The notes below the pieces were generated by a model. It saw only the letters and a list, made by a program, of their open reading frames with translations, did no database searches and was not told where the DNA came from. The position numbers and the translations under genes are program-made. A stretch of 41,821 nucleotides of DNA, from the IMG/VR virus record IMGVR_UViG_3300045988_157277, positions 1 to 41,821 of that record. One strand, written 5' to 3'. Source of the DNA: a virus. Shown piece by piece: positions 7,587 through 27,625 of the stretch (the stretch's first letter is position 1; every line of letters begins with the position of its first letter).

Positions 7587-7597
7587 AGTGGGTTTAT

Positions 7598-9370: not shown

Positions 9371-9605
9371 TGAATTAGGTCGTTTATGTATTCCAAAAGC
9401 AATGAGAAATGAATTAGGAATAAATGATAATGATCTAGTTAATATTGAATGTAAAGATAATAAAATAATAATATCAAATGCTAAAGAAATTCGCTCTAGA
9501 GAAGAAATAAAGAACTTTCTAGAAAGATTAAAAGCAAATGATGATGATTTATCAAAAGGAATGAAAACAGCTCTAGAATGGTGCTTAAAAGAGGATACAA
9601 AATAG
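9354..9605 (+). CDS. AbrB/MazE/SpoVT-family DNA-binding protein (83 aa)
   Basis: N-terminus 'IDELGRLCIPKAMRNELGINDNDLVNIE' matches the swapped-hairpin AbrB/MazE N-domain (compare AbrB 'VDELGRVVIPIELRRTLGI'). Confidence 0.65.
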   Translation: MNKRIDELGRLCIPKAMRNELGINDNDLVNIECKDNKIIISNAKEIRSREEIKNFLERLKANDDDLSKGMKTALEWCLKEDTK

Positions 9606-9617
9606 TATTCTTTTTTT

Positions 9618-9653
9618 GTTTCAAATAGAAACATATCATTTTACTTTTGAAAC
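9618..9653. promoter_or_regulatory. Operator copy 1: GTTTCAAATAGAAACAT-N12-TTGAAAC
   Basis: Inverted heptamers GTTTCAA/TTGAAAC with 22-nt spacing. Same architecture at 12354 and 13087. Confidence 0.55.
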
Positions 9654-9717
9654 ATTATATTGTATAATAATATATGTAAGGTAGTTAATACAAATAAACA
9701 ACAAAGGGGAAAACAAA

Positions 9718-9927
9718 ATGAAAAACATCTATCGTAAATTAACAAAAGAACAAAATGAAAGAGGAGTTATTTTCAGTAGTGTATTAGCAAATGATCTAAA
9801 TCAATATGATGAAGATATGGTACATGAAGTATTTGAAGATACTTATAAAAAAGAATTGGTAATTGAAAGATTATCAAATGCAGATTTCTTTAGTGAAGCA
9901 TACAAATATAACATTATTAGAAAATAA
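9718..9927 (+). CDS. Hypothetical small protein (69 aa)
   Basis: RBS AAAGGGGAAAACAAAATG. Followed by a hairpin terminator. Confidence 0.45.
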   Translation: MKNIYRKLTKEQNERGVIFSSVLANDLNQYDEDMVHEVFEDTYKKELVIERLSNADFFSEAYKYNIIRK

Positions 9928-9933
9928 AATAAT

Positions 9934-9960
9934 GGGAGAATTTTTTCTCCCTTTATGTTT
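9934..9960 (+). terminator. Rho-independent terminator
   Basis: GGGAGAA-tttt-TTCTCCC followed by TTTATGTTT. Confidence 0.5.
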
Positions 9961-9992
9961 CAAATAGTAAAATATAAAAGGGGTAATGAATA

Positions 9993-10148
9993 ATGAAAGT
10001 TTTTAGCAAAGAGAAGTTTATTGAAATAGAAGGTTATGAAGTTTATCAGAAATGTAAAGATTGGGTAGATGTTATAGATGGTAAAAGAGTGGAAAAAGGT
10101 GAAGTTGATGGTTGGTTATCAGATAAAGCTTGGGAGGTTGAAAAATGA
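9993..10148 (+). CDS. Small ORF (51 aa), plus strand, not in the track
   Basis: RBS AAAGGGG. Preceded by the operator-like motif GTTTCAAATAGTAAAAT at 9957-9973. Favoured over the minus-strand ORF 10072..10317. Confidence 0.4.
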   Translation: MKVFSKEKFIEIEGYEVYQKCKDWVDVIDGKRVEKGEVDGWLSDKAWEVEK

Positions 10149-10311
10149 TAGCATTAGCAAAAGAACTACAAGAAGCATTTGATAAATATAATTGGTATGC
10201 ATGTGAAGATGACCAAGTAGGCTGGTATGAGATGTTAGATGAAATACAAGATCCTAGTGATGAAAAGGAAATAAGAGAAGTCATTAAAAACTTAAAAGCA
10301 GCTACAATATG
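10144..10311 (+). CDS. Small acidic ORF (55 aa), ATGA-coupled to the previous ORF
   Basis: Start overlaps the upstream stop. Ends just before the bidirectional terminator. Confidence 0.4.
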
Positions 10312-10315
10312 AAGC

Positions 10316-10348
10316 ATTAAAAAAGAACCTTAAGAGGTTCTTTTTTTT
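10316..10348. terminator. Bidirectional rho-independent terminator
   Basis: AAAAAAG-AGAACCT-taag-AGGTTCT-TTTTTTTT. Confidence 0.7.
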
Positions 10349-10419
10349 GTTGGTATTAAAACATATAATACTATGGTTCTGTACTATAAGTTCCATAGAA
10401 CTACAAGCAGTTACACCAA
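10348..10419. other. Candidate attP: ~72-bp imperfect dyad-symmetric region between two terminators, adjacent to the serine integrase 3' end
   Basis: Nested inverted repeats GTTGGT...ACCAAC and CTATGG...CCATAG share one centre at 10383/10384. Confidence 0.35.
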
Positions 10420-10420
10420 C

Positions 10421-10450
10421 AATAAAAACCCTTGAAAAACAAGGGTTTTA
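10421..10450 (-). terminator. Terminator of the integrase gene
   Basis: CCCTTG-aaaaa-CAAGGG flanked by an A-run and a T-run, immediately 3' of the int stop. Confidence 0.65.
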
Positions 10451-10454
10451 ACAA

Positions 10455-12308
10455 CTACATATAAATAGTTAATTCCATATCATCAGAATCATTTCTTCGC
10501 CAGTTCATCCTTTTTGTTTTTTTATAGACAATTTTTTCAATAAATGATTTTAATAATTCGTTTTTATCTGATATACTTGCAAGTGTATTATATTGATTGA
10601 TGCAGTTTGCCAAAATGGGAACTGCTTTTTTATATTGTATTATAATCTCTTCTTCATCTTTGTTAGAAAGTTTATCTTTTTCTTTTGATAATTCATCAAT
10701 TTGTGATTCATAATAATTTTTATCTTCTAAATATTCTTCATAACTAAATTTTTCTTCGTTATAATCTCTACGAGCATTTCTTAAAGCAACTTTAAATTTG
10801 GTTAATTTATTTTCAATTTGTTTCAATCTTTTTTCATTGTTTGTTTTTTTCTTTTTTGCTTCTTGCTCATAATTATCAAGAAAGTATTTATAATCATTTA
10901 ATGTTTGCTCTAATTTGTTTAATATAGCCGCTTCAACTTTATCTAATGTACTTGATACATTTTTACAATTTAGATCAGGACATTGCAGCATATCTTTTCT
11001 TGGTTCAGGTTCTTTATATGTTGTTATTACTTTATCAAACTTATTATCTTTAATATTTAAAAGTGTTTTTAATTCAGGCCATTTTTGAGTAAAAACATCA
11101 GAATAAATTATTTTTTCTTCTTTTTTTCTAAACCATCCAGCAACTAATGCTTTTGTAATATTTAATTCATTTGCAATATCTTGAAGTGATAAATTTGTTT
11201 GATTTTTATGTTCTGTTAAATATTGTGATAATTCAAGTTTATTAATTTCGTAAACTCTTACTTTTTTTCTTTCGTGTTTTCTAGTACATGGATTTCTTAC
11301 AAGTGATCTACCACAATAATGACAAAATACTACACCAGCTAAAGGATTTTTTAATTCTCTATTTAATCCAGTTCTTGAATTAGGATTATTCTTTATTTTT
11401 GCTTGTGCTAGTTCATACATCTCTTTAGAAATTAATGGCTCATGTAATCCTTTAACAATTAAATAATTTTCTTGCCTAGGTCGTGTTTTAACAATTCTTT
11501 CACCATCAATTAACTTTTTTAAGACTTTTCTTTTTTCATTTACTAAAACACCATAATAAGTTTCATTTTCAAGTATGTTGTTTACCATACCATAATTCCA
11601 TGGAGTTTTAGTTCTTGATTCACATCCTTGTTGATTTAAGTAATTTGCTAATTCATGGCTGCTCATACTTTCAACAAATAATTCAAACATCATTTTAACA
11701 ATTGGTGCTTCTACTGGATGTGGAACTAATTTAAAACCTTTATCAAGTTTTTCCCTATCATATCCAAAAGGAGCGGTTGAATAAATGTATTTGCCTTCTT
11801 CTAAACTTATCTTCTTACCTCTTTTTAAAATGGTTTTAGTGTATTCAAGGTATTCATTACCTTGAGTTAATTCCATTTCAAATATTTTTCGGTCAAATTT
11901 ATTATTTAAATCGTAAGTTTTAGATAAAGTTATGCATAGTGTCTCACTATATCTAAATACATTTACTACACGCCCACAATCCTCCATATCTCCCCTAGAT
12001 AGCCTTTGAGGTTCTACAACTAATACTGCTTTAATATCATCATCAGCTAATTTATTAAATACTTTCTTAATTTCAATTCGATCATCAATTGTTTCACCAG
12101 ATACAACTTCACGAAAAATATTTTCTTCTGGTATTCTTTCACCAAAATTTCTTATTGCATAATCTTGCAGCATCTTTTCATGTCTTGCTAAAACAACTTG
12201 TAGATCCTCTTTTTCTTCATTTCTTGATTTCCTTAAATAAATTATTATTTGATGTACTTTAATAGTTGATAAAACATTAAAAAGTTGTTCTATGTTACCG
12301 ATTTCCAT
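10455..12308 (-). CDS. int: Large serine recombinase (phage integrase, 617 aa)
   Basis: N-terminal resolvase catalytic domain with 'IIIYLRKSRNEE' (the nucleophilic Ser context). A recombinase domain, a Cys-containing zinc ribbon (CHYCGR...C) and a C-terminal coiled coil typical of large serine integrases. Confidence 0.85.
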   Translation of the reverse strand: MEIGNIEQLFNVLSTIKVHQIIIYLRKSRNEEKEDLQVVLARHEKMLQDYAIRNFGERIPEENIFREVVSGETIDDRIEIKKVFNKLADDDIKAVLVVEPQRLSRGDMEDCGRVVNVFRYSETLCITLSKTYDLNNKFDRKIFEMELTQGNEYLEYTKTILKRGKKISLEEGKYIYSTAPFGYDREKLDKGFKLVPHPVEAPIVKMMFELFVESMSSHELANYLNQQGCESRTKTPWNYGMVNNILENETYYGVLVNEKRKVLKKLIDGERIVKTRPRQENYLIVKGLHEPLISKEMYELAQAKIKNNPNSRTGLNRELKNPLAGVVFCHYCGRSLVRNPCTRKHERKKVRVYEINKLELSQYLTEHKNQTNLSLQDIANELNITKALVAGWFRKKEEKIIYSDVFTQKWPELKTLLNIKDNKFDKVITTYKEPEPRKDMLQCPDLNCKNVSSTLDKVEAAILNKLEQTLNDYKYFLDNYEQEAKKKKTNNEKRLKQIENKLTKFKVALRNARRDYNEEKFSYEEYLEDKNYYESQIDELSKEKDKLSNKDEEEIIIQYKKAVPILANCINQYNTLASISDKNELLKSFIEKIVYKKTKRMNWRRNDSDDMELTIYM

Positions 12309-12353
12309 AATTTTTCTATTCCCCTTGATGAAATTATTTGATTAAATAAAATT

Positions 12354-12389
12354 GTTTCAAATAGTAAAATTAGTTCGTATGATTGAAAC
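12354..12389. promoter_or_regulatory. Operator copy 2: GTTTCAAATAGTAAAAT-N12-TTGAAAC
   Basis: Same 36-bp architecture and spacing as 9618 and 13087. Lies between the int start and the 12440 ORF. Confidence 0.55.
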
Positions 12390-12439
12390 AAAAGCATTGT
12401 TTTTATATAACTACATATATTGTTTTGAGGTGATTTTTA

Positions 12440-12594
12440 TGAAAGTAAAAGTTATTATGCAACCACCAACAAAAGAAAAATTAAAAATCATTTATGATGT
12501 ATGCAACAAAATTTTTCGTGATAATGAAGATGTATTTTACACAAAAGAACAAGTTAAAGAACTAAAAAAAGATACGTCAAATATCTTTTTGTAA
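12440..12594 (+). CDS. Small ORF (51 aa) convergent with and overlapping the cI 3' end
   Basis: RBS GAGGTGA 8 nt upstream of the ATG at 12440 (the track ORF starts earlier, at 12352). Confidence 0.35.
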
Positions 12595-12942
12595 ATCATC
12601 TTTAGCCTTTAAAAACATTCTAAATATTTGTTCTTGAAGTTCATATTTTTCTTCAAGAGGTATAGAATTATTTTCAAAAATCATTCTAGCTCTTTCCAAC
12701 AATTCGATTGTTTCAATTTCTTCGCTAACAACTCCAAGTGTAGCAAGACTAACACCAAAATAATCTGCTATTTTTTTGATTTGTTGGATGTTTAAATTAC
12801 GTTTACCGTTTTCTAAATTGCTCCATTGTGAACGTGAAACACCAATTATTTCAGAAGCCTGTAATTGATCCATACCTCTTGCTTTTCTTAATTCTTTAAT
12901 TCGTTTACCTATATCCTTTGTATCTAAAGGCTTGTTATTCAT
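12577..12942 (-). CDS. cI: XRE-family HTH repressor (CI-like, 121 aa)
   Basis: 'IGKRIKELRKARGMDQLQASEIIGVSRSQWSNLENGKRNLNIQQIKKIADYFGVSL' is a canonical Cro/C1-type HTH. Divergent from a cro-like gene. Confidence 0.8.
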   Translation of the reverse strand: MNNKPLDTKDIGKRIKELRKARGMDQLQASEIIGVSRSQWSNLENGKRNLNIQQIKKIADYFGVSLATLGVVSEEIETIELLERARMIFENNSIPLEEKYELQEQIFRMFLKAKDDLQKDI

Positions 12943-13034
12943 TTATACAACTCCTTTTGTTTTTTTATACAATAGTAATTTTATCTTATATTATTCAAAA
13001 AGTAAAATAATATGTTTATTATGTAAAATATGAG

Positions 13035-13062
13035 TTGACTTTTTAAATTATTCTAGTATAAT
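13035..13062 (+). promoter_or_regulatory. Sigma-A-type promoter for the cro-direction early transcript
   Basis: TTGACT, 16 nt, TATAAT. The operator copy lies downstream in the leader. Confidence 0.5.
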
Positions 13063-13086
13063 TTTAATTGAGAATAGTTTTATGAT

Positions 13087-13122
13087 TATTCAAATAGTAA
13101 AATATGAAGATATTGTTGAAAC
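13087..13122. promoter_or_regulatory. Operator copy 3: (A)TTCAAATAGTAAAAT-N12-TTGAAAC in the cro leader
   Basis: Identical spacing to copies 1 and 2. Confidence 0.55.
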
Positions 13123-13134
13123 GGAGGTGATTAA

Positions 13135-13335
13135 ATGAAAAGATTGAATCTATTGTTATTTAGAAAGAAAAAAGGATTAAATCAAAAACAGATGGCCGAC
13201 AAATTAGAAATTACAAGGCAACATTACAATAGATTAGAAAATGGTATTGGTCAGCCATCAATACAACTATTAGAAAAATTTGCAATTGAATTTTCTGAAA
13301 TTGATGATATGTGGGAACTTTGGAAAAAAAGTTAG
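13135..13335 (+). CDS. cro: Cro-like XRE HTH protein (66 aa)
   Basis: 'GLNQKQMADKLEITRQHYNRLENG' HTH. RBS GGAGGTGA. Divergent from cI. Confidence 0.75.
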   Translation: MKRLNLLLFRKKKGLNQKQMADKLEITRQHYNRLENGIGQPSIQLLEKFAIEFSEIDDMWELWKKS

Positions 13336-13411
13336 TCAATTTTGTGAAATACTTAACAAGGGAACGTATGTACTGTATATTTTACTTATCAAATTGAAAT
13401 GAGGTAATTCG

Positions 13412-13612
13412 ATGAAATCTGATAATATTGTAGCAGTAATTGAAAAGCTTGGAGAAATCATTATACATAACAAAAATGACATTTCATATTTAGAATATGA
13501 AAATGAAAAATTAAGAGAAGAAATTGCAAAAATTGAAGAAAAAATTAGTTATTACATAGAACAATTAGAACAAAATGTTACGGATAGTGATTATAAAGAA
13601 AATATTAAATAA
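13412..13612 (+). CDS. Small coiled-coil protein (66 aa)
   Basis: RBS GAGG. Heptad-rich sequence. Confidence 0.4.
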   Translation: MKSDNIVAVIEKLGEIIIHNKNDISYLEYENEKLREEIAKIEEKISYYIEQLEQNVTDSDYKENIK

Positions 13613-13719
13613 TACATATAATGTTTCAGATAGTAAACAAAATAAAATTTATTGAAAAATTATGTTTTTCTTAAAAAAATAAAAATTGCTGAAAAACATA
13701 AAATAAAGGAGGTGAATAG

Positions 13720-13953
13720 ATGAAAGAATTTGATAAATATGATTTAAAAATGATAACAATAAATAAGATGATGAAAGAACCTAAAAAATTATTAAATGGA
13801 TTATTCAGTATTGGATTTGATTTTTCAAAAGGTAAAGATCATTGTTGTTTAATAGTTGCTCAACCAAGAGGAAATTCAGAAGTAATGATTATCAATGAAT
13901 TTTATGATGAAGAAGCAGATGAAATGTTCAAAAAATTAGTTGGAAAATCATAA
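13720..13953 (+). CDS. Hypothetical protein (77 aa)
   Basis: RBS AAGGAGGTGAATAGATG, the shared junction motif. Confidence 0.45.
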   Translation: MKEFDKYDLKMITINKMMKEPKKLLNGLFSIGFDFSKGKDHCCLIVAQPRGNSEVMIINEFYDEEADEMFKKLVGKS

Positions 13954-14017
13954 AAAGTATTTTACATAAAAAATAAGACTTAAAGCCTTATAGAATAAGG
14001 GAAAAATCAATATTGAT

Positions 14018-14058
14018 ATGGTGCAATATAATATAAAGGTTATGTTGCATTAAATATA
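14018..14058. promoter_or_regulatory. 40-bp palindrome-containing element, copy A (TGGTGCAATATAAtATAaaGGTTATGTTGCATTaAATATA)
   Basis: 36 of 40 nt identical to 19088-19128. Internal dyad TGCAATATAA/TTATGTTGCA. Sits ~20 nt before the RBS of the first gene of an early operon. Confidence 0.5.
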
Positions 14059-14078
14059 TAGAGAAAAGAGGTGAAAAA

Positions 14079-14399
14079 ATGGAATTGTGGATAAAAAATC
14101 AAGATAAAACAATATTACAAAAAGTTGATAATTTACTTATAAGTAATGGAATAAATGAAAAAAAAACATTTAATATTTATACAAATAATATTAATTTTCA
14201 AAACGTTTTAGGTGAATATAAAACAAAAGAAAGAGCATTAGAAGTATTAGATGAAATACAAAATTATATTATAGATAAAAATGTTATTTATAATTGTAAT
14301 TCTATATTAACTTTAGTAAATAATAAAAGTTTAAATGATGCTGCAGAAATTTTAGAAAGAGTAGAAAAAACATCAGTTTATGAAATGCCAAAGGAATAG
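14079..14399 (+). CDS. Hypothetical protein (106 aa)
   Basis: RBS AAAGAGGTGAAAAAATG. Confidence 0.5.
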   Translation: MELWIKNQDKTILQKVDNLLISNGINEKKTFNIYTNNINFQNVLGEYKTKERALEVLDEIQNYIIDKNVIYNCNSILTLVNNKSLNDAAEILERVEKTSVYEMPKE

Positions 14400-14407
14400 G
14401 AGGAAAT

Positions 14408-15016
14408 ATGAAAATTGAAGATATAAAAAATTTACTTGATGAAATAGGACTTGATGAAGATGGTTATGGATATATAGATTGTACGACTGCTACTGAATAT
14501 ACAGATAATAATCAATATGAAAGAATAGTTGCAGCTATAAAACAAAATATAGTATTGCAACAAGAAAATACAGCATTAACAAAAAAAATAGAAGAAGTTG
14601 AAAAGCAAGGTATGGAATCGTTAATACAAGTTGAGAAATTAGCAAAAGAAAAAGATGATATAAAACAACAATTTCTAGTGTTTATGAGTGAGTTATGTGA
14701 TTATTTTTCAAAAACAAAAGATATGGAATTTCCAATAAGAATAGGTGATTATAAATTTGAAGTATTAGGTAATGATTTGTTGGTTTATAATTATGATCCG
14801 ATACAAAAACCTGAACCAATTGAATTAAAAATTAAAATAACTGAAAATTTAGACAAAGTAGAGTGTCCACTTTGCGGTAATCCGTTAGGAAAATATCCAG
14901 CAATATCAAGAAAAGATAATAAAACTAAAATTTGTAGTAATTGTGGAACATTAGAAGCATTAGCAGCATTTAAAGAATCACTAAAGGATGATAAAACAAA
15001 TGAAGAAAACATTTAA
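14408..15016 (+). CDS. Hypothetical protein with a C-terminal zinc ribbon (202 aa)
   Basis: RBS AGGAGGAAAT. C-terminal 'CPLCGN...CSNCG'. Confidence 0.5.
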   Translation: MKIEDIKNLLDEIGLDEDGYGYIDCTTATEYTDNNQYERIVAAIKQNIVLQQENTALTKKIEEVEKQGMESLIQVEKLAKEKDDIKQQFLVFMSELCDYFSKTKDMEFPIRIGDYKFEVLGNDLLVYNYDPIQKPEPIELKIKITENLDKVECPLCGNPLGKYPAISRKDNKTKICSNCGTLEALAAFKESLKDDKTNEENI

Positions 15017-15161
15017 GGATCAATGTGATGTATGCAAAAAAATGGATTATTGTAAAGGATATAAAGGATTAGTGCTATGCAATAAATGTATTAAAAAAGA
15101 AGTTTCTAAAGCACCAAAGATAATAGGTGATAAAAATGGACAAACAAGATTTAATTTCTAA
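15000..15161 (+). CDS. Small Cys-rich ORF (53 aa; CxxC...CxxC), not in the track
   Basis: 'DQCDVCKK...YCKG...LCNKCIKK'. Weak RBS. Overlaps both neighbouring genes. Confidence 0.2.
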   Translation: MKKTFKDQCDVCKKMDYCKGYKGLVLCNKCIKKEVSKAPKIIGDKNGQTRFNF

Positions 15162-15996
15162 ATTAGATGATTGGTTATTGGAACTTAAATATGATGAAAA
15201 GGCTGCTAATACATTAAAGCAATATAAAAATAATGTTATGAAGTTTATAGATTGGCTTCCTGATGATGATAAACCAATAACTAAAGTTACTACTATGGAT
15301 TATAAAGAATATTTAAGAACAATCACTCAAAGTCCTAAAAGTATGAATGTATGGATTGTATCATTAAATAAATATTTAAGATGGTTAGGCCATAACGATT
15401 TAACTATTAAAAAATATAAAATGCAAGAGCAAAGTAGTAATGAAGAATCATTAACTATAGCAGATTTCAAAAGATTATTAAGAATTGCAAATAGGATTGG
15501 TAATGAACAGCTTTATTACATAATTAAAGTATTAGGTATGACAGGCTGCAGAATTGGAGAATTGAAATATTTTACAGTTGAAAACCTAGAAAAAACACCT
15601 AGAAAAAATATTAAAGTTTATAACAAAGGAAAAGATAGAGAAATTGTTATAAGGCAAGATTTATCAAGAGAACTAAAACATTTTTATAAAAAAAGAGGAA
15701 TTGAAAGTGGTTTTATATTCTTATCAACTGATCCAAAATGTAAAGACAAAATGCCATGTGTATCAACTATATGGAGGCAAATGCAAAAAGTTGCTGGATT
15801 AGCAAGAATAAATAAAGAAAAAGTACATCCTCATAATTTCAGACATTTATTTGCTCAAGTATTTTTAGATACATATCCTGAAAATGTTTTAGATCTAGCG
15901 GATTTATTAGGCCATAACGATTTAAAAACAACTAGGATATATACTAAAACATCAGGTGAACAAAAGAGAATTAAATTAGAAAAGGTTAAATTTTAA
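15127..15996 (+). CDS. Tyrosine recombinase, XerC/XerD-like phage integrase family (289 aa)
   Basis: N-terminal SAM-like core-binding domain. C-terminal catalytic motifs '...MTGCRIGELKYF...', 'HPHNFRHLFA', 'LGHNDLKTTRIYTKT' (R...H-x-x-R...Y). Confidence 0.8.
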   Translation: MIKMDKQDLISKLDDWLLELKYDEKAANTLKQYKNNVMKFIDWLPDDDKPITKVTTMDYKEYLRTITQSPKSMNVWIVSLNKYLRWLGHNDLTIKKYKMQEQSSNEESLTIADFKRLLRIANRIGNEQLYYIIKVLGMTGCRIGELKYFTVENLEKTPRKNIKVYNKGKDREIVIRQDLSRELKHFYKKRGIESGFIFLSTDPKCKDKMPCVSTIWRQMQKVAGLARINKEKVHPHNFRHLFAQVFLDTYPENVLDLADLLGHNDLKTTRIYTKTSGEQKRIKLEKVKF

Positions 15997-16006
15997 AGGA
16001 GATTAT

Positions 16007-16552
16007 ATGAAAGATGAATTTATAGAATTATTAAAAATAACTAAAAGAAAAGGAATAAATAATTTAATACATTGGTTAGAAAATGAAACTGATTTTTTTA
16101 CTGCACCAGCAAGTACAAAATATCATTTATCAAAAGAATCAGGATTATTAGAACATAGTTTAAATGTATATGATGAATTAGTAAGTGAATATGGAATATC
16201 TGATAATATAAGTAGTTTGATAATAGTTGCCTTATTACATGATATATGTAAAGCAAATTATTATTCAATTAGTGAAAGAAATGTAAATAAAAATGGTAAA
16301 TGGATTAAAGAACCTTATTATACAGTAAACGATCAATTTCCATTAGGACATGGTGAAAAATCAGTAATATTAATTCAAAGATATATTGATTTAACTGATG
16401 AAGAAATAGCTGCTATTAGATGGCATATGGGAGCATATGAACCAAAAGAAAACTATTCTACATTAGGAAATGTATTTAATAAGTATCCGCTTGCTTTATA
16501 TCTACATATAGCGGATTTAAAAGCAACATACATAACAGAAAAAGAGGTATAG
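16007..16552 (+). CDS. HD-domain phosphohydrolase (181 aa)
   Basis: 'TKYHLSKESGLLEHSLNV' (H...H) and 'VALLHDICK' (the HD motif). Confidence 0.65.
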   Translation: MKDEFIELLKITKRKGINNLIHWLENETDFFTAPASTKYHLSKESGLLEHSLNVYDELVSEYGISDNISSLIIVALLHDICKANYYSISERNVNKNGKWIKEPYYTVNDQFPLGHGEKSVILIQRYIDLTDEEIAAIRWHMGAYEPKENYSTLGNVFNKYPLALYLHIADLKATYITEKEV

Positions 16553-16555
16553 ATA

Positions 16556-16792
16556 ATGAAAAATAATTTAAATGATGTAAATAATTATTTATTTGAAGAA
16601 TTAGAAAGATTAAATGATGATGAAACTTTAGAAAGTGAAGATAACTTTAAAAAGGAAATACAAAGAGCAAAAGCAGTATCATCAATATGTTCTACAATAG
16701 TATCAAATGCAAACTTAATATTAAATGCTAAAAAATATGCTGATGAATTAGGAATAAATGAAAAAGAAGTATTGCAGTTAAAGGAAAAATAG
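16556..16792 (+). CDS. Hypothetical protein (78 aa)
   Basis: Tightly packed, with RBS GAGG. Confidence 0.4.
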   Translation: MKNNLNDVNNYLFEELERLNDDETLESEDNFKKEIQRAKAVSSICSTIVSNANLILNAKKYADELGINEKEVLQLKEK

Positions 16793-16793
16793 T

Positions 16794-17411
16794 ATGCATA
16801 GATACAGTGAAGAACAAAAGAAATTTATTATTGATAATTATTATGGTAAATATTCCAAAGAATTAGCGGATATGTTTAATAAACAATTTAACACAAATAT
16901 AACCGCTAGAGAAATAAAGAGTTATAAAGAAAATCATAAATTAAATAGTGGTTTATCAGGCCAATTTCAAAAAGGACATGTATCTCATAATAAAGGTAAA
17001 AAGCAAATTGAATATATGAGTAAGGAAGCTATAGAAAGGACAAAAGCAACAAGATTTAAAAAAGGAAATATACCTTCTAATAAAGTTCCAGTTGGAACGG
17101 AACGAATTAAAAAAAATGGGTATATTGAAATCAAAATTAAAGATGGCAATCTTAATAAGAATTGGCAGCCAAAACATAGATATATATATGAAAATCATTA
17201 TGGATTAATTCCGAAAGGACATAAAGTGATATTTGCTGATGGAAACAATAGAAATTTTGATATAAATAATTTAATTTGTGTATCCAATAGTGAAGAATTA
17301 ATTATGAATAGATACAAATTAAAAACTAAAGATATTGAATTAACTAAAACGGGGTATTTAGTAGCGAAAGTTATTGATAAAACAAATAAGGTTAAAAATG
17401 AAAGACTATGA
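16794..17411 (+). CDS. HNH_3-like endonuclease homolog with an N-terminal HTH-like domain. The catalytic dyad appears degenerate.
   Basis: 'KHRYIYENHYGLIPKGHKVIFADGNNRNFDINNLICVS' aligns with the HNH_3 core, but the D-H/H-H position reads F-A. Confidence 0.5.
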   Translation: MHRYSEEQKKFIIDNYYGKYSKELADMFNKQFNTNITAREIKSYKENHKLNSGLSGQFQKGHVSHNKGKKQIEYMSKEAIERTKATRFKKGNIPSNKVPVGTERIKKNGYIEIKIKDGNLNKNWQPKHRYIYENHYGLIPKGHKVIFADGNNRNFDINNLICVSNSEELIMNRYKLKTKDIELTKTGYLVAKVIDKTNKVKNERL

Positions 17412-21029: not shown

Positions 21030-21461
21030 ATGAAAAATTATATAATTACATCTAATGAATTAGATATAGTAAATAGAAGATTATTCAGATTATATGCAAG
21101 AAAACAAAAATTAAATGAAGAAATAACTAATTGTAATAGTCATTTAAAAGAGATAGTTACAAGTGGTGGTGTAGTTAGTGATAAAATGACTAATTATGTA
21201 GCCGAACTTGAAGAAGTAGATAATGAGATATTAGAACTTGAAAATCAAGCAAAAGAATTAAAAACAGATCTTGATTATATGGATAGTAGATTATCGAATA
21301 TAAATGAAATAAAGGAGCAAGTATTTGTAATGTACTTTATAAGAGGGTTAAAGCCTTTACAAATTGCTCCTAAAATTCCATGTGGTAAGTCAAGTGTATA
21401 TAGATACATTGATGAAATCAATAAAGAACGTGCAAGTTGGGAAAAAATAAGAAAAATTTGA
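21030..21461 (+). CDS. Putative late-gene transcriptional regulator (sigma-70 region-4-like HTH, ArpU/RinA-like; 143 aa)
   Basis: C-terminal 'VFVMYFIRGLKPLQIAPKIPCGKSSVYRYIDEI' resembles a region-4 HTH. N-terminal coiled coil. Located after the replication genes and ahead of the late region. Confidence 0.4.
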   Translation: MKNYIITSNELDIVNRRLFRLYARKQKLNEEITNCNSHLKEIVTSGGVVSDKMTNYVAELEEVDNEILELENQAKELKTDLDYMDSRLSNINEIKEQVFVMYFIRGLKPLQIAPKIPCGKSSVYRYIDEINKERASWEKIRKI

Positions 21462-21745
21462 TGTTATAATATAAACGTAGGAAACTACAAAATCCATGAA
21501 TTTCATCTTGCATCGGCTTTATAGCCGATGTGGAAGATAATACACAAGTTACTATTCTTGATAAAAATAGAAGCCGATAACAGTTAGTAATAAAGTATTT
21601 AAAACTCATTTACGTCCTTTTAATTCTTTTTAATGTATTATCTTGCACATTGTCTATAAAGTTTAAAAGCCAATGGGGAAGCAACCTTAAATTTAGGGTT
21701 GTTTTTTTATATTAAAAAGGATGGTGAATCAATCTGATATATAAA
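21462..21745 (+). promoter_or_regulatory. 280-bp non-coding region with a perfect hairpin (CATCGGCT-ttat-AGCCGATG), a second AGCCGATA copy and a terminal terminator-like hairpin. Candidate late promoter/leader and/or cos region.
   Basis: No credible ORF. Hairpin at 21510-21530. GCAACCTTAAAT/TTAGGGTTG followed by TTTTTTT at ~21680-21710. Confidence 0.4.
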
Positions 21746-22123
21746 TTGTGTAGAAGATGCAAAAAAGTAATTATTCATCCTGCTGCTTATTGTGAAGAAT
21801 GTCAAAAAATAGTTGATATGAAAAATGAAGAATTGCAAAGAGCAAGAGATAGAAAATATAACAAACAGCGAGATCCAAAATATAAAAATTTTTATAATAG
21901 TAAAGATTGGTACATTTTAAAAGAAAAAAAGCTTCAAGATGAACAATATAGATGTGAATTTAAAGGCTGCAATAAATTAGCAGTAGATGTTCATCATAAA
22001 ATACCAATTCAAACTCCTGAAGGTTGGGAATTAAGACTTGATTATAATAATTTAGAAGCATTATGTATAGAACATCATAATTACAGGCATGGCCGATTTA
22101 AAAAAAGAAAGGTGGTGAAATAA
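21746..22123 (+). CDS. HNH endonuclease, terminase-associated (cos-type packaging) family (125 aa)
   Basis: Zinc-binding CxxC...CxxC and 'DVHHKIPIQT...NLEALCIEHHNYRHG'. Confidence 0.7.
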   Translation: MCRRCKKVIIHPAAYCEECQKIVDMKNEELQRARDRKYNKQRDPKYKNFYNSKDWYILKEKKLQDEQYRCEFKGCNKLAVDVHHKIPIQTPEGWELRLDYNNLEALCIEHHNYRHGRFKKRKVVK

Positions 22124-22362
22124 TGAAATTAAGACAAATAGTTTGTGATAAAACTGAATTAACATTAACTAAAGAAAAAAAGCAAATTAAATATGGTGAT
22201 ATTTTTGAAGTATCAGAAGAAAGAGCAAAAGAAATTTTAGCAGCTACTTTCAAAGGTAAACCAGTTGCAGAAATAGAATATGAAAAAGCAACTGATGAAT
22301 CAGAAAATTCAATTGAAAATAAAAAAGAAAAAACTACTGCTAAAACAAAAAGCAAGAAATAA
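22123..22362 (+). CDS. Hypothetical lysine-rich protein (79 aa)
   Basis: ATGA-coupled. Confidence 0.4.
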   Translation: MKLRQIVCDKTELTLTKEKKQIKYGDIFEVSEERAKEILAATFKGKPVAEIEYEKATDESENSIENKKEKTTAKTKSKK

Positions 22363-22373
22363 GGAGGTGTTTC

Positions 22374-23228
22374 ATGATAATTGATATAACTTTAAATGAT
22401 TTTAAAGAAATTACATCCAATAGTGATTTTATTGGTAAAGTATCTGAAAATAAAGCAACGATATTAAAATTTCATTTAACTGAAAAACTATCAAAATATA
22501 ATTTTTATTTAGATTTTGAAAAGCCTAATGGATCTAAATTTACTACTCAAAAATTAAATATTGTTGATAATACAGTTGAATATGAAATAACAAATAGTTT
22601 ATTAGATGAAAATGGATATTTATTACTTGAAGTTGTTTTAACAAATGATAATGAAAAAATAATTTATCCTTCATTAAACTTCAAAATAGAAACATCTATA
22701 AATGCTACTAATGAATTAGCACCTGAAAATAAAACATTAATATCTGAAATTGAGGATGTATTAAATAAAATTGATACTACTGGAAATGGAGATAAATTTT
22801 TAAGCGATGATGGCACATATAAAAACGTAAGTAGTTCAGGTGGAACAACTGATTATGATGATTTAACTAATCAGCCTATAAAAAGATTAGTTAGTATGGA
22901 TCAAACTAATCCAATTGTATTAAGAAATTTAGATAGTGGTATTTATTGTTTACATGGTTATATATTACCTTTTGATGGTTCTACTGATTTATTTGTAGCA
23001 CAAACTCCAATATCAGTTAATATTGCAAAATCAAGTAGTATTTCATTTATTCAATTATTTTTTTCATTTGGCAATCAACTACAATACTTTGAAGTAACTG
23101 ATAGCAATTATACACTTAATACAATCTCATTTAATAATTTAGCAACTAAAGAATATATTGATAATGTTGTTGGAAGTATTAACACCGAATTAGCAACATT
23201 AACAACTGTTAGTGAGGTTAGTGAATAA
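22374..23228 (+). CDS. Tail-fiber-like protein (284 aa) with a 'GDKFLSDDGTYK' motif
   Basis: RBS AAGGAGGTG. The G-x-KFL-x-DDGT-W/Y-K motif is common in Firmicute phage fiber/RBP proteins. Confidence 0.5.
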   Translation: MIIDITLNDFKEITSNSDFIGKVSENKATILKFHLTEKLSKYNFYLDFEKPNGSKFTTQKLNIVDNTVEYEITNSLLDENGYLLLEVVLTNDNEKIIYPSLNFKIETSINATNELAPENKTLISEIEDVLNKIDTTGNGDKFLSDDGTYKNVSSSGGTTDYDDLTNQPIKRLVSMDQTNPIVLRNLDSGIYCLHGYILPFDGSTDLFVAQTPISVNIAKSSSISFIQLFFSFGNQLQYFEVTDSNYTLNTISFNNLATKEYIDNVVGSINTELATLTTVSEVSE

Positions 23229-24415
23229 TGGCAACTACAACAGATTACATAAATCAATTAAAAACAGATAAGCAAACACTAGCAAATAATTTAGTTGCAA
23301 AAGGTATTGAAGCAACAAATGATGAAACTTTTACTTCTTTAGTTCCAAAAGTATTAGATATACAAACTGGAATAACACCTAGTGGCTCTATTGATATAAC
23401 GGAAAACGGAACTTATGATGTAACTGATAAAGAAAGTGCTATTGTAAATGTTCCTACTAAAACATTAGGAACTAAAACAATAACTGCAAATGGAACATAT
23501 AAAGCAAGTGATGATAATTTAGATGGTTATAGTGAAGTTGAAGTTGATACTGGTAAATATGCACCTAGAGCAAAAATAAGTTTTGAAAATTATACTGGTA
23601 CAGAATTAGATTATGAACTTGCTAATTTAGATACAAGTAATATTACTTTAATGAATAGTATGTTTTCTAATTGTAAAAATTTAACAAGTTTAGATGTAAG
23701 TAATTTTGATACTTCAAAAGTTACTAGATTAGATTATATGTTTAATTATTGTGAAAAATTAACAAGTTTAGATGTAAGTAATTTTGATACAAGTAATTGT
23801 ACTGCAATGTACGATATGTTTGAAAGATGTTCAAATTTAAAAACATTGGATTTAAGTAATTTTGATACATCAAAGGTTGATAGAATGAACCAAATGTTTT
23901 ATTTTTGTTCATCTCTAATAAGTTTAAATTTAAGTAATTTTAATACAAGTAATGTTACTACTATGGCATCAATGTTTTCGAATTGTGCAAATTTAGAAAC
24001 AATAAAAATAAATTCATTTGATACATCAAAAGTTACTAATCTTAGCAGTACTTTTAATAATTGTATGAAATTAGATACAATACCTCAATTAAATGGTAAT
24101 AATATAAATAATTTAAGTAGTTCTTTCTTTAATTGCAATAATTTAACTAATTTTAATGGTATTACTAATTTAGGACAAGCATATAGTACATCACAAAGTG
24201 CAAATTATTCATATTATAAATTAATATTATCTAGTTGTACTAAATTAACAGAACAAAGTTTAATAAATATATTAAATAATTTATATGATATAGCAACTAA
24301 AGGTTGTAATACTCAATCGGTAGTATTAGGAAGTACTAATTTAGCAAAATTAACTAGTGATGAAGGACAACTTGCATTAGATAATGCAGCTACTAAAGGT
24401 TGGGCAGTATCATAG
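23228..24415 (+). CDS. BspA-type leucine-rich-repeat (LRR_5) surface/adhesin-like protein (395 aa)
   Basis: About 8 tandem ~26-aa repeats 'LTSLDVSNFDTSKVTxLDYMFNYCEKL'. Confidence 0.65.
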   Translation: MATTTDYINQLKTDKQTLANNLVAKGIEATNDETFTSLVPKVLDIQTGITPSGSIDITENGTYDVTDKESAIVNVPTKTLGTKTITANGTYKASDDNLDGYSEVEVDTGKYAPRAKISFENYTGTELDYELANLDTSNITLMNSMFSNCKNLTSLDVSNFDTSKVTRLDYMFNYCEKLTSLDVSNFDTSNCTAMYDMFERCSNLKTLDLSNFDTSKVDRMNQMFYFCSSLISLNLSNFNTSNVTTMASMFSNCANLETIKINSFDTSKVTNLSSTFNNCMKLDTIPQLNGNNINNLSSSFFNCNNLTNFNGITNLGQAYSTSQSANYSYYKLILSSCTKLTEQSLINILNNLYDIATKGCNTQSVVLGSTNLAKLTSDEGQLALDNAATKGWAVS

Positions 24416-24431
24416 AAAGGAGGGATTAAAT

Positions 24432-24698
24432 ATGTATGATATTCCAGAAACAGCAACATTGTTAAAAGAAGGCTTATATGTTGATTATTACACTTATCCT
24501 AGTGGCAATGTTCAAACGAGATTATATGCAGATGAAGGTTGGGCTATATATCATATAAATTCTGTTGAAGGTGAGGATAGAACATATCATTATAGAGTTT
24601 ATCTAGCATATAACGATAGTGTAGATAATTATAATGTATGTCAAGTAACACCTGATATGGAAGTAGTAGGTATGCCTAAAGAAGAAGAAGTAATATAA
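24432..24698 (+). CDS. Hypothetical protein (88 aa; the track ORF starts at 24384)
   Basis: RBS AAAGGAGGGATTAAATATG. Confidence 0.45.
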   Translation: MYDIPETATLLKEGLYVDYYTYPSGNVQTRLYADEGWAIYHINSVEGEDRTYHYRVYLAYNDSVDNYNVCQVTPDMEVVGMPKEEEVI

Positions 24699-24711
24699 GA
24701 GGTGATAATAT

Positions 24712-24891
24712 ATGATCTTAGTTGAAAATAATTTAACTAGTACAAGTACCACAAATGCTTTAAGTGCAAATATGGGAAGAATTTTAAATGAAGCTATTGA
24801 AACTCTTGAATTAAGAGTTATTGCAATAGAAGGTACTACACTAGATATTAGTGCATTATCTAGTGAAGAAATTTTAGAAATTATAGAGTAA
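24712..24891 (+). CDS. Short tail-fiber-motif protein (59 aa), not in the track
   Basis: RBS AGAGGTGA. 'ENNLTSTSTTNALSANMGRILNEAIE' matches the 'NLTSTSTTDALSAxQGKxL' motif of Firmicute phage fibers. Confidence 0.4.
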   Translation: MILVENNLTSTSTTNALSANMGRILNEAIETLELRVIAIEGTTLDISALSSEEILEIIE

Positions 24892-24905
24892 AGGAGAGTG
24901 ATTAA

Positions 24906-25214
24906 ATGAAATTTCTAGATAGTACAGGTCTAACACAAGTTTGGACTAAAATAACAACATTATTAGGAGGAAAAGTTGATAAAGTTGATGGTAAAGGATT
25001 ATCAACAAATGACTTTACAACAGAAGAAAAAACAAAATTAGAAGGATTAAGTAATTATGATGATACAGCATTAGCTGGTAGAGTTACTGCTATTGAAGGT
25101 GCTGGATATCAAACATCTGCTCAAGTTCAAAGTGCTATTGATACTGCTATTGCTGGTGCAGATACTTGTCAACCATTAACAAGTGCTGAAATAACAGCTA
25201 TTATTGGCAGCTAG
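24906..25214 (+). CDS. Tail-fiber-motif protein (102 aa)
   Basis: RBS AAGGAGAGTGATTAAATG. 'KVDKVDGKGLSTNDFTTEEKTKLEGL' is the classic prophage tail-fibre repeat motif. Confidence 0.5.
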   Translation: MKFLDSTGLTQVWTKITTLLGGKVDKVDGKGLSTNDFTTEEKTKLEGLSNYDDTALAGRVTAIEGAGYQTSAQVQSAIDTAIAGADTCQPLTSAEITAIIGS

Positions 25215-25216
25215 TA

Positions 25217-26152
25217 ATGAAAGTATTAGATGAAAATGGTTTAGAAGTATTAAAGCAATATTTATTAGCTGAATTGCCATTAATTAACCCTAGTGATTGG
25301 GAACAATTAACATCTCCTGGAACAGCAACAATATATAAATTAAAAGTAATTAATAATCAATTAGTAGCACCAGCTTATAGACAAATGTATGCAACAGAAG
25401 ATGGAGAAAATTGGACATCAACAGCATACGGTAGTGCATTAAATGATGTGTGCTATTTTAAAGGAAATTATATAGTTGCTAGAACTGGTGGAGCATACAT
25501 AGGTACTGCATTAGATAATTTAACATATAGTGCTTTTTACAGCAGCATAGCAAATACATGTTGCACTGATGGAAATATAGTTGTTGTAGCTGGAAATGGA
25601 GGTGGGATATGCTATTCTACCGATGGTACAAACTTCATACAAGCAACATCTCCAGTAACAAACGATATATCAGCAAGTATTTACAATAATGGATTGTTTA
25701 TATTAGTTGGAAGAAGTGGAACTATATTGACAAGTGAAGATGGTGTAAATTGGGTAAAAAGAACGAGCAATATTACAACTGGATTAAACGATATTTTCTA
25801 TGATGGTAAAAAATATATAGTTGTAGGTAATAGTAAAGTAATACTAACATCCAATGATGGAATAACATGGACAAATATTACAACTAATCTACCATCAACA
25901 GATATACAAACAATCTATTATCAAGATAATTATTACATTATAACAGCAAGTTCAAACACATTATATTATTCAAAAGACTTAACATCATTTACATCAGTAA
26001 GCATAGATAAAACATGTTATGCTATAGTATATTTTAAAGATCAATTATATATATCTGGAAGTAGTGGATATATTGCCAGAGCATCTATAACAGACCAAAA
26101 ATTAAATTTACAAGAAGTTGCTAATTACTTTCTGAACAAAATAAATAAATAA
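25217..26152 (+). CDS. BNR/Asp-box repeat beta-propeller protein (311 aa). Putative carbohydrate-binding or receptor-binding protein.
   Basis: Repeated S/T-x-D-G-x-x-W/F boxes: TEDGENWTST, YSTDGTNFIQ, TSEDGVNWVK, TSNDGITWTN, YSKDLTSFTS. Confidence 0.6.
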   Translation: MKVLDENGLEVLKQYLLAELPLINPSDWEQLTSPGTATIYKLKVINNQLVAPAYRQMYATEDGENWTSTAYGSALNDVCYFKGNYIVARTGGAYIGTALDNLTYSAFYSSIANTCCTDGNIVVVAGNGGGICYSTDGTNFIQATSPVTNDISASIYNNGLFILVGRSGTILTSEDGVNWVKRTSNITTGLNDIFYDGKKYIVVGNSKVILTSNDGITWTNITTNLPSTDIQTIYYQDNYYIITASSNTLYYSKDLTSFTSVSIDKTCYAIVYFKDQLYISGSSGYIARASITDQKLNLQEVANYFLNKINK

Positions 26153-26210: not shown

Positions 26211-26371
26211 AGTTTATCAAAATAAATAAAAACAAGCGAATAAACCATATAAAAATAACTAGGGGGAGGTAAAAAAAGTTTTTCTGAACCTCTAGGGAAC
26301 GGTGCAGGGGAGGTCTTTGTAGCAAAAACTCCCCAAATGTAAATTTGAAATGACTTCAAGGAGTGAATTTA

Positions 26372-27625
26372 ATGCAGATTGAATTAATCAACATTGATGA
26401 AATTATTCCTTATGAAAATAATGCAAAACTTCATCCGAAAGAGCAAATAGAACAAATTAAAAAATCTATTTTAGAGTTCGGCAATAATGATCCAATAGCA
26501 ATAGATAAAAATAATGTTATTGTTGAAGGTCATGGAAGATTATTAGCATTAAAAGAATTAGGTTATAAAGAAGTTGAAGTTATTAAACTAGGACATTTAA
26601 CTGATGAACAAAGAAAGGCCTATACACTTATTCATAATAAATTAACTATGAATACAGATTTTGATATTGAAATTTTAGAATCAGAATTAGCAGCAATCAA
26701 TATTATTGATATGAGTGATTTTGATTTTGATTTAGATATTGAAATGGAAGAATCAATAATTGAAGATGATTATGATGTAGAGGAAAAGTTAGAACAAATT
26801 GAAGAACCTAAAAGTAAGCTAGGTGATATTTATGAGTTAGGTGAACATAGGTTAATGTGTGGAGATAGTACGCAAAAAGAAGATGTTTTGCGTCTTATGA
26901 ATAATCAAGTTGCAGATATGCTTCTTACTGATCCACCTTACAATGTGAATATTTCTAATTCAGATGGAATGACAATTGAAAACGATAATATGTCAGATGA
27001 TAATTTTAAACAATTTTTAAATGCTGCTTTTCAAACCGCTAGTGCTTCACTTAAAAAAGGTGGAGCATTTTATATTTGGCATGGAGATAGCGAAACAGTT
27101 AATTTTAGAAATGCATGTGAAAATAATGAATTATCAGTTAGACAATGTTTGATTTGGGTTAAGAATGGATTTAATTTTGGTAGGCAAGATTATAAATGGA
27201 AACATGAACCTTGCTTATATGGTTGGAAAGAAGGAGCAAGTCATTATTTTATTGATGAATATAATAATCCTACTGTTATTGAAGATAATTTAAATATTGA
27301 TTTACTAAAGAAAGAAGAATTGAAAAAACTAGTTGAAGAATTGCTATCGGATAGAGTTCCAACAACTATAATTCATGAAGATAAACCATTAAAAAATGAT
27401 AAACATCCAACAATGAAACCAATAAACTTGTTATCATTTCAAATAAAAAATAGTAGTAAGAAAGAAGAAATAGTTCTTGATTTATTTGGTGGAAGCGGAT
27501 CAACGTTAATTGCTTGTGAACAATTAAATAGAAAATGTTACATGATGGAGTACGATCCGAAATATGTTGATGTAATTATTGATAGATGGGAACAATTAAC
27601 TGGAAATAAGGCGGTATTGCTATGA
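26372..27625 (+). CDS. DNA methyltransferase (N6-adenine/N4-cytosine type) fused to an N-terminal ParB-like nuclease domain
   Basis: N-terminal 'PYENNAKLHPKEQIEQIKKSILEFGNNDPIAIDKNNVIVEGHGRLLALKELG' is a ParB/Srx fold. 'LLTDPPYNV' is the DPPY catalytic motif. No restriction enzyme partner, so it is an orphan. Confidence 0.75.
   Translation: MQIELINIDEIIPYENNAKLHPKEQIEQIKKSILEFGNNDPIAIDKNNVIVEGHGRLLALKELGYKEVEVIKLGHLTDEQRKAYTLIHNKLTMNTDFDIEILESELAAINIIDMSDFDFDLDIEMEESIIEDDYDVEEKLEQIEEPKSKLGDIYELGEHRLMCGDSTQKEDVLRLMNNQVADMLLTDPPYNVNISNSDGMTIENDNMSDDNFKQFLNAAFQTASASLKKGGAFYIWHGDSETVNFRNACENNELSVRQCLIWVKNGFNFGRQDYKWKHEPCLYGWKEGASHYFIDEYNNPTVIEDNLNIDLLKKEELKKLVEELLSDRVPTTIIHEDKPLKNDKHPTMKPINLLSFQIKNSSKKEEIVLDLFGGSGSTLIACEQLNRKCYMMEYDPKYVDVIIDRWEQLTGNKAVLL

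Follow-up and report, generated by a model that had tools for sequence, protein, structure and literature searches.

Why would a phage whose tail genes already stand together in a canonical module carry a second set of fibre-like and receptor-binding-like genes at another place of its chromosome? The question is raised by positions 22374-26152 of IMG/VR virus record IMGVR_UViG_3300045988_157277, a DNA of 41,821 nucleotides (nt) analysed over its whole length and hereafter called the window. An earlier reading of the bare sequence, the original prediction, described this block as an ectopic cluster of receptor-binding-like genes, and offered as possible roles head fibres, an exchangeable host-range cassette, a lysogenic-conversion adhesin or, for the short genes, remnants of a broken fibre gene. 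The best reading of our data, to which we give a probability of roughly 0.6, is that the block is a functional accessory adhesion-fibre module of the virion, rather than a decayed gene or a secreted adhesin, and that it forms one unit with the HNH endonuclease gene and a 79-codon gene (g79) that precede it. The five open reading frames (ORFs) of the original prediction were all found on the + strand exactly where it had placed them, together with the three motifs it had quoted: GDKFLSDDGTYK in 22374-23228, NLTSTSTTNALSANMGRIL in 24712-24891 and KVDKVDGKGLSTNDFTTEEKTKLEGL in 24906-25214. Two genes had been overlooked, an ORF of 88 amino acids (aa) with a strong ribosome-binding site (RBS) at 24432-24698 and the 79-aa ORF at 22123-22362, in the gap between HNH and the cluster. 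The features of the block, in which LRR stands for leucine-rich repeat, NTD and CTD for N- and C-terminal domain, Ig for immunoglobulin and AF2 for AlphaFold 2, are as follows.

22374..23228, + strand: ORF-A, 284 aa, putative anchor of the BppU/FibU type (homologue profile and predicted fold)
22374-22697, + strand: Ig-like NTD of ORF-A (residues 1-108)
22788-22823, + strand: GDKFLSDDGTYK in ORF-A (residues 139-150)
22866-23138, + strand: beta-sandwich CTD of ORF-A (residues ~165-255; AF2)
23142-23225, + strand: variable C-terminal tail of ORF-A (residues ~257-284)
23228..24415, + strand: DUF285/PARCEL-repeat LRR protein, candidate receptor-binding tip 1 (Pfam DUF285, NCBIfam TIGR02167)
24432..24698, + strand: g88, 88 aa, strong RBS
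24712..24891, + strand: g59, connector of 59 aa with an N-terminal fibre repeat, a short helix and the C-terminal "socket" ALSSEEILEIIE
24906..25214, + strand: g102, connector of 102 aa with the N-terminal "plug" MKFLDSTGLTQVWTKI, the repeat KVDKVDGKGLSTNDFT and the C-terminal "socket" PLTSAEITAIIGS
25217..26152, + strand: seven-bladed Asp-box-like beta-propeller, candidate receptor-binding tip 2, with the N-terminal plug helix MKVLDENGLEVLK

A putative anchor, two candidate tips and small connectors

Taken alone, ORF-A matched no family. Among 47 homologues that were collected, a profile built from 28 matched FibU of Staphylococcus phage 80alpha (E value 0.0023), which was the sole solved protein in the PDB that the profile matched at the sequence level, and five members of the family matched Pfam BppU_N. 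The AlphaFold model (predicted local distance difference test, pLDDT, 80.7) comprises two confident beta domains separated by a poorly predicted linker; its N-terminal Ig-like beta-sandwich matches the NTD of BppU, and its five best structural matches are all baseplate proteins. According to the literature, the BppU/FibU type of fold makes up the ring by which fibres or receptor-binding proteins are held on the distal tail; FibU itself is a dispensable accessory fibre (PMC7048315; PMC12917162), and the same kind of ring has been predicted for the neck passage structure of TP901-1 (PMC10747895). Because of the FibU profile match, the BppU_N matches, the fold and its published role, ORF-A would be the anchor protein of a virion adhesion device, placed at the baseplate or the neck.

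The LRR protein that follows matched Pfam DUF285 (PF03382) with an E value of 1e-38 and the NCBIfam PARCEL repeat TIGR02167 with 1.5e-50. It contains seven repeats spaced by 26 aa, or about 78 nt of DNA, except for the last (24 aa). It had been described as a BspA-type LRR protein of about eight repeats; membership of the LRR clan holds, but the type is DUF285/PARCEL and not LRR_5/BspA proper, and the repeats number about seven. LRR_5 (PF13306) was not among the Pfam matches of the window protein, and the gene in the equivalent position of the contig L092 is of the LRR_5 type. The N-terminus is a phage-type conserved segment (phrog_35590) devoid of a signal peptide or lipobox, and its 46 N-terminal residues correspond to a conserved "type-2 plug" (see below).

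The next gene, g88, is 62-63% identical to the ORF that follows the LRR gene in L006 and L091, two contigs of a distant lineage, and had only four representatives among 1.84 billion proteins. It appears to be inherited together with the LRR gene and may have an accessory or assembly role. A weak match (E 7e-4) linked g88 to the repeated units of a 2238-aa adhesin of the Big_9/cadherin-like type (Ig/cadherin repeats), which hints at a small beta-sandwich domain. A search for g88 as a fused domain of LRR proteins was uninformative, given four representatives and this one weak adhesin match.

The propeller was modelled with high confidence (AF2 pLDDT 90, predicted template modelling score, pTM, 0.87) as seven blades flanked by N- and C-terminal helices, so that its description as an Asp-box/BNR propeller was correct. 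Five blades carry an Asp-box-like SxDGxxW, assigned by eye and one residue shorter than the classical SxDxGxTW. The nearest solved folds in Foldseek were Ycf48 (5ojr, E 8e-11) and designed seven-bladed propellers, and the Pfam matches were DUF6242 (2e-7) and PSII_BNR (4e-5, below the gathering score). Cyanophages and Caulobacter phages have propellers of this type in their baseplate and tail-fibre proteins, and others are part of fibre proteins that contain collagen or intramolecular-chaperone domains. Together with the anchor fold of ORF-A, these propellers bear out the proposed relation of the block to fibres and receptor binding.

The protein P0031, from a 36-kb contig, is a 341-aa hybrid in which residues 1-147 of ORF-A are joined to the propeller from 'NIVVVAGNGG' onwards at a shared 'DG'. 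It looks as if the connectors had been deleted naturally, or else like a chimera created in assembly, and as the sole hybrid of ORF-A and propeller it was not retained as a Rosetta-stone fusion.

Between g88 and the propeller lie two short genes. The product of g59 matched Pfam Phage_fiber_rpt (PF22337) with an E value of 4e-12 and 46 bits (gathering cut-off 27), and that of g102 matched PHROG tail families at 1e-7. At least 174 homologues make up the g102 family; those listed, 120 in number, are without exception stand-alone proteins of 57-180 aa, and both end motifs are present in 67 of these 120 under strict patterns. In other phages, genes of this family are found inside runs of fibre genes or at their end.

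A motif rule at gene junctions

The ends of successive products in the block resemble one another from one junction to the next. The socket is a C-terminal motif, "(A/S)(I/L)T(N)xE(I/L)(D/E)xx(I/L/M)", of the 'ITNxEIDxI' type, and the plug is an N-terminal motif, "M..(F/Y)LDxxGLxxLWxKIK", whose gene begins -4 to +34 nt after the end of the socket. Thus g59 ends with ALSSEEILEIIE and g102 starts with MKFLDSTGLTQVWTKI; g102 ends with PLTSAEITAIIGS and the propeller starts with MKVLDENGLEVLK; the alternative tip found in the relative L004 starts with VKVLDQEGLGFYH. Four other, unrelated phages (L094, L096, L097 and L098) show this pairing on either side of their g102-family genes, and the rule held at 10 out of 10 junctions in five lineages. 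When IMG/VR was scanned with g102, at least 576 related stretches were found. In the 80 loci returned from these, the socket was present in 35 of 38 non-redundant ORFs that end just upstream of a plug-type start, as opposed to 15 of 775 others (Fisher p ~5e-46).

Judged by eye, both motifs are kept at the amino-acid level across phages that otherwise have little sequence in common, and the motif strings were not found in the literature searched. They may be complementary parts of one standard joint, non-covalent in nature, that connects each fibre segment to the next, and, since they are conserved, would double as recombination points. A further type of junction was observed in L091, L092 and L093, where genes ending in '...TKIW(E/T)..' are followed by genes starting with 'MA(V/T)T.VNGI.VNKIT', which suggests that several joint codes exist in parallel.

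Conservation and modular variation in relatives

The block was compared with relatives on IMG/VR contigs (L001, L002 and L099), on a contig of an NCBI metagenome-assembled genome (MAG; L003) and on ENA and Logan contigs (L004 and L005). Every ORF of the block has its own RBS, with a strong Shine-Dalgarno sequence, and the genes adjoin closely in head-to-tail order. In all of these relatives, g79, ORF-A, g59, g102 and a terminal tip stand directly after the HNH gene, which is in the same position and 80-84% identical, and g59 is kept as a 59-aa gene. The pairwise ratio of nonsynonymous to synonymous substitution rates (dN/dS) was 0.29-0.33 for g59, 0.15-0.26 for g102, 0.34-0.63 for ORF-A and about 0.2-0.5 for the propeller; these four genes are therefore under purifying selection.

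Against this constant frame, the tips vary. Positions 23148-24712 of the window, that is, the last ~27 codons of ORF-A, the LRR gene and g88, have no counterpart in L001 and L002, and the LRR and g88 genes are likewise missing from L003-L005 and L099. The left breakpoint falls exactly at the start of the C-terminal tail of ORF-A (...KEYIDNVVGSINTELATLTTVSEVSE). By contrast, an LRR gene follows the ORF-A homologues of L006, L091, L092 and L096, and in L006 and L091 (~51 kb) ORF-A, the LRR gene, g88 and a g59-like gene occur in the same order as in the window. In the comparison with L091, identity reaches 86% in the tail of ORF-A and 85% over residues 1-46 of the LRR protein, while elsewhere in both proteins it is 37-45% (37-38% in the middle of the LRR protein); across the boundary between the ORF-A tail and the LRR start, nucleotide identity amounts to 78%. 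The proposal that the LRR gene was inserted is thus right in so far as it is an indel, but this indel sits at a module boundary, brings a matching ORF-A tail and breaks no gene. The same proposal fails for the propeller, which is the usual terminal gene of the module.

The terminal tip varies as well. In L004 the propeller is replaced by an unrelated 142-aa gene provided with the same kind of plug, and the propeller of L099 is only 46% identical to that of the window. The synonymous divergence (dS) of the propeller relative to L001-L003 is 0.057, compared with 0.3-0.8 for the neighbouring genes, a mosaic signature that points to a recent horizontal replacement of the propeller gene. The original suggestion of an exchangeable host-range cassette agrees well with relatives that are devoid of the LRR and 88-aa genes or have another tip in place of the propeller. 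Invertible, shufflon-type switching was also considered and rejected, no long inverted repeats flanking any gene of the block. In L005 (11288-11716), the 142-aa tip gene of L004 is split into ORFs of 45 and 96 aa, an apparent inactivation. An additional element of ~150-190 nt lies between the last fibre gene and the terminator in L001 (10940-11105) and also in L002, L003 and L004, with long inverted repeats (ACACTAACACTTAATAGTTAGTGTACTGATGATATAT ... ATATATCATTAGTACAGTATCTATTAAGATACT), and is absent from the window.

In more distant phages, similar genes are found in several settings. A g102-like gene (173 aa) stands inside the canonical tail module of L094, between a 591-aa gene, which comes after TMP, Dit, Tal and others, and the gene of a 462-aa Peptidase_G2 protein. 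In L096, an ORF-A-like gene (hhalign probability 92.5%, E 5e-7), a DUF285 gene, a small ORF, a 97-aa ORF ending in a socket, a g102-like gene and a plug-bearing tip form a series, similar in order to the window, between a tail-fibre-like gene and the endolysin. The placement of the block recurs as well: L091 has fibre genes interleaved with TerS-like and HNH/AAA genes upstream of TerL, and L098 has a g102-like gene, together with its tip, behind early genes. The L091 region (6911-17370) contains, as fibre genes, a collagen-like gene of 638 aa, an ORF-A-like gene, DUF285, g88, a g59-like gene, two further fibre proteins and a 280-aa fibre-repeat protein, and it also holds a TerS-like helix-turn-helix (HTH) protein, an HNH-AAA_33 fusion protein and TerL.

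Genome setting and position of the module

The first 119 bases of the window (1-119) are repeated exactly at 41703-41821, which indicates a circularly permuted complete genome of 41,702 bp. The canonical tail module consequently wraps round the ends of the window. The features that frame the block are listed below.

21030-21461, + strand: late-regulator-like gene (sigma/ArpU-like), upstream of HNH
21510..21659, + strand: structured region between the late-regulator-like gene and HNH, with a 28-nt inverted repeat that is 89% complementary
21673..21710, + strand: terminator-like hairpin with U run upstream of HNH (-16.8 kcal/mol, z -3.26)
21746..22123, + strand: HNH endonuclease, first gene of the unit (Pfam HNH, E 1e-3)
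22123..22362, + strand: g79, 79 aa with a Lys-rich tail, conserved after HNH in L001-L005 and L099
26164..26196, + strand: terminator-like hairpin with U run that closes the unit (-10 kcal/mol, z -1.95)
26299..26300, no strand: probable cos cleavage point, right end of the virion DNA, between ...CTAGGGAA and CGGTGCAGGGGAGG...
26363-27625, + strand: methylase with an N-terminal ParB_N-like domain, first gene past the probable cos
~41153 to 1481 across the junction, + strand: DUF859-type distal tail gene, ~675 aa

The phage is temperate and Clostridium-like, with a G+C content of about 26% over the window. Starting from the probable cos, the + strand carries in order the ParB_N/N6_N4 methylase, a P27-family TerS, TerL, portal, ClpP-type protease and capsid, then TMP, Dit, Tal, the DUF859 protein and a 596-aa protein, which is the canonical tail module as originally described. 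A small fibre-like protein and an NlpC/P60-CW_7-LysM endolysin follow and, further on, replication genes, the late regulator, HNH and the cluster, so that the flanks of the block are also those first claimed, with the late-regulator-like gene and HNH upstream and the methylase, TerS and TerL downstream. A 617-aa serine recombinase, which we take to be the integrase, is encoded on the - strand after the endolysin, about 10 kb from the block, and is the sole recombinase detected. Neither the block nor ORF-A had a megablast or tblastn match among 50,697 deposited phage records, which indicates that there are no close cultured relatives among them; for the rest of the genome, the only DNA match to deposited phages was 49 nt in capsid genes of C. 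tetani phage. The host search against GTDB genomes gave only three distant matches, and searches for known RNA elements and tRNAs found none.

Two contigs from unrelated data sets, L002 from IMG/VR and the MAG contig L003, end exactly at window position 26299, in a G+C-rich intergenic region 63 nt upstream of the methylase gene. Given this co-termination and the presence of HNH and a P27-family TerS, 26299/26300 is most simply explained as a probable cos end. The HNH protein scored 19.7 bits against Pfam, just below the 21.4-bit gathering threshold, and is the usual partner of cos-type packaging with a P27-type TerS. With a cos at this point, the virion chromosome would end with the module, which on the linear map follows the last tail gene at a distance of about 19 kb and in the circular form immediately precedes the packaging genes. 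The block, ORF-A included, was in this sense rightly called ectopic, since it lies outside the tail morphogenesis module, between HNH and cos. Methylases related to the product of 26363-27625 stand first in many IMG/VR contigs, and two other related contigs, L015 and L016, likewise open with nearly the same sequence ahead of the methylase gene (136 and 164 nt).

Upstream of HNH, the region 21510-21659 folds as RNA with -32.7 kcal/mol (z -3.55; 0 of 200 shuffles folded as well) and matched no Rfam family; it is possibly a regulatory leader of the HNH/fibre transcription unit. The closing hairpin is conserved in sequence in L002, L003 and L004, and the L001 contig stops within it. A scan for sigma-70 promoters performed no better than on shuffled sequence. 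The HNH, g79 and fibre genes may be transcribed as their own unit under the neighbouring late regulator, and expression of that unit is probably late, because it is the last block before cos, is bounded by terminator-like hairpins on both sides and comes after a late-regulator-like gene. No significant family match was obtained for g79. Over its 51 N-terminal residues, g79 shares 51% identity with a stretch of a 124-aa ORF located between the protease and capsid genes of L004 (9292-9435), and small proteins that resemble it by eye precede the fibre genes in L091 and L092.

Discussion

Arranged as a device, the products of the block would be incorporated into the virion and attached to one another end to end by non-covalent contacts. 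The Ig-like NTD of ORF-A may assemble into a ring that encircles the distal tail or, conceivably, the neck, while its C-terminal part would carry the binding proteins. On this scheme, the special tail at the C-terminus of ORF-A would receive the LRR protein through a "type-2" junction, with g88 as an accessory factor, and g59, g102 and the propeller would be linked in a row in which each 'ITNxEIDxI-like' C-terminus meets the '(F/Y)LDxxGLxxLW' N-terminal helix of the next product. The LRR protein and the propeller would then be two tips that bind receptors. Tips and cassettes may be exchanged by recombination at gene boundaries, as the junction motifs are conserved while the bodies differ, and such recombination would give rise to presence/absence and tip-swap variants such as those seen in the relatives.

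Several points weigh against this scheme. Docking is deduced from the adjacency of motifs, the models being those of monomers. The motif patterns behind the junction count were written after examples had been seen, and the loci counted are related to varying degrees and not phylogenetically independent. No fused socket-plug protein occurred in ~1 Mb of fetched loci, and no tblastn match to ORF-A in the 50,697 phage records. The confident CTD beta-sandwich of ORF-A (residues 165-255) showed no specific match to the CTD of BppU, which holds BppL, and neither a BppU-like domain nor a partner for one was detected in the two canonical distal tail proteins examined. Lastly, the location of the block outside the tail operon, bracketed by hairpins, could make it a moron-like, separately regulated unit.

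Among other explanations, the one that fares best holds that the motifs at gene boundaries are mainly recombination linkers rather than docking surfaces, so that the small proteins need not form one chain. We regard it as rather unlikely, yet several observations fit it: mosaic boundaries coincide with junctions (23148 and 24712), the ORF-A tail and LRR start form a conserved island across a gene boundary, and the propeller is far closer to the relatives than its neighbouring genes are. However, motif conservation at the amino-acid level, across phages with little common sequence, indicates selection on the protein, and in the model of the propeller the plug comes out as a helix. The linker and docking readings are in any case not mutually exclusive.

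Somewhat less probable is a device made of the same parts in which the ring of ORF-A sits at the head-tail neck, as a collar, giving neck whiskers and not baseplate side fibres. The ring predicted for the neck passage structure makes such a position conceivable, whereas the five best structural matches of ORF-A are all baseplate proteins, and the ORF-A-like series of L096 lies between a tail-fibre-like gene and the endolysin. Head fibres, one of the roles first suggested, were unsupported as such.

We consider it very improbable that the block is a moron or lysogenic-conversion cassette by which the prophage expresses adhesins on the surface of its host. Its position next to cos with terminator-like hairpins on either side, its variability among relatives and the PARCEL/DUF285 repeats, typical of bacterial surface lipoproteins, would all suit such a cassette. 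Yet neither a signal peptide, a transmembrane segment, a lipobox nor an LPXTG motif was found in the six products, whose maximum 19-residue hydropathy was at most 1.08, and this absence of export signals argues against a secreted adhesin. ORF-A moreover has a virion anchor fold, the block is on the late-gene strand directly after HNH, and homologous series occur among the tail-fibre genes of other phages. Finally, the idea that the short ORFs with fibre motifs are what is left of a larger fibre gene, decaying after insertions had split it, can practically be dismissed, despite motifs present inside long tail proteins of PHROG families and the split tip gene of L005, because these ORFs are separate genes of identical length with their own RBS in all relatives examined, evolve under purifying selection (dN/dS 0.15-0.33 for g59 and g102) and, in the case of g102, belong to the large stand-alone family described above, which refutes the idea of short-gene debris.

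The adhesion-fibre module favoured here has several known counterparts. The tripod of TP901-1 and Tuc2009 (BppU, BppA and BppL) is encoded downstream of Dit and Tal and ends in BppL-type heads, whereas the window genes stand at the other end of the chromosome, with LRR and propeller tips and extra short connector genes. In 80alpha, with FibU (gp68) and FibL (gp62), the NTD has the same fold as in ORF-A, and FibU is a non-essential accessory fibre whose NTD forms a ring round the tail and whose gene lies several ORFs from the other baseplate genes (PMC7048315). However, FibU is a single polypeptide with a collagen-like shaft encoded in the late tail region, while the window fibre would be divided among several genes beside cos. 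The side fibre of Brochothrix phage NF5 fuses in one protein an anchor and a receptor-binding domain that are separate products here. The lactococcal neck passage structure shares the predicted type of N-terminal ring, is accessory and dispensable for assembly, and ends in binding modules, but is a single long protein that is encoded in the morphogenesis module and sits at the neck. In the long tail fibre of T4 (gp34-37) and in the anchor/branch receptor-binding protein systems of G7C, CBA120 and Klebsiella phages, several products are joined end to end or via short conserved N-terminal peptides, and their tips are exchangeable, as proposed for the window. The likeness is one of description; the junction motifs differ and the window genes are much smaller. 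The kind of device is therefore known; its variant here consists of many small genes, conserved joints and a place beside cos, outside the tail operon.

A broader and more tentative idea, which we judge somewhat less probable than its negation, is that the block is a free-standing case of a general code of fibre assembly, in which small genes supply links with a standard socket-plug joint and a second joint connects a BppU-like anchor to an LRR tip; no description of such a general code was found in the literature searched.

The host range of siphophages of Gram-positive bacteria is set by peripheral adhesion devices, which are normally read off the TMP-Dit-Tal-receptor-binding-protein block. 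The module described here would mean that a complete second device can sit beside cos, where an annotation restricted to the tail module would miss it. The junction rule, which would extend to hundreds of metagenomic phages, offers a way to examine how modular fibres are assembled and exchanged, and may provide natural cut-and-paste points for the retargeting of phages. If the assembly code is true, phages could daisy-chain and swap receptor-binding modules even when these are encoded away from the tail operon; the architecture of a fibre would then be predictable from nothing more than gene order and end motifs, and the joints would serve as splice points for host-range engineering.

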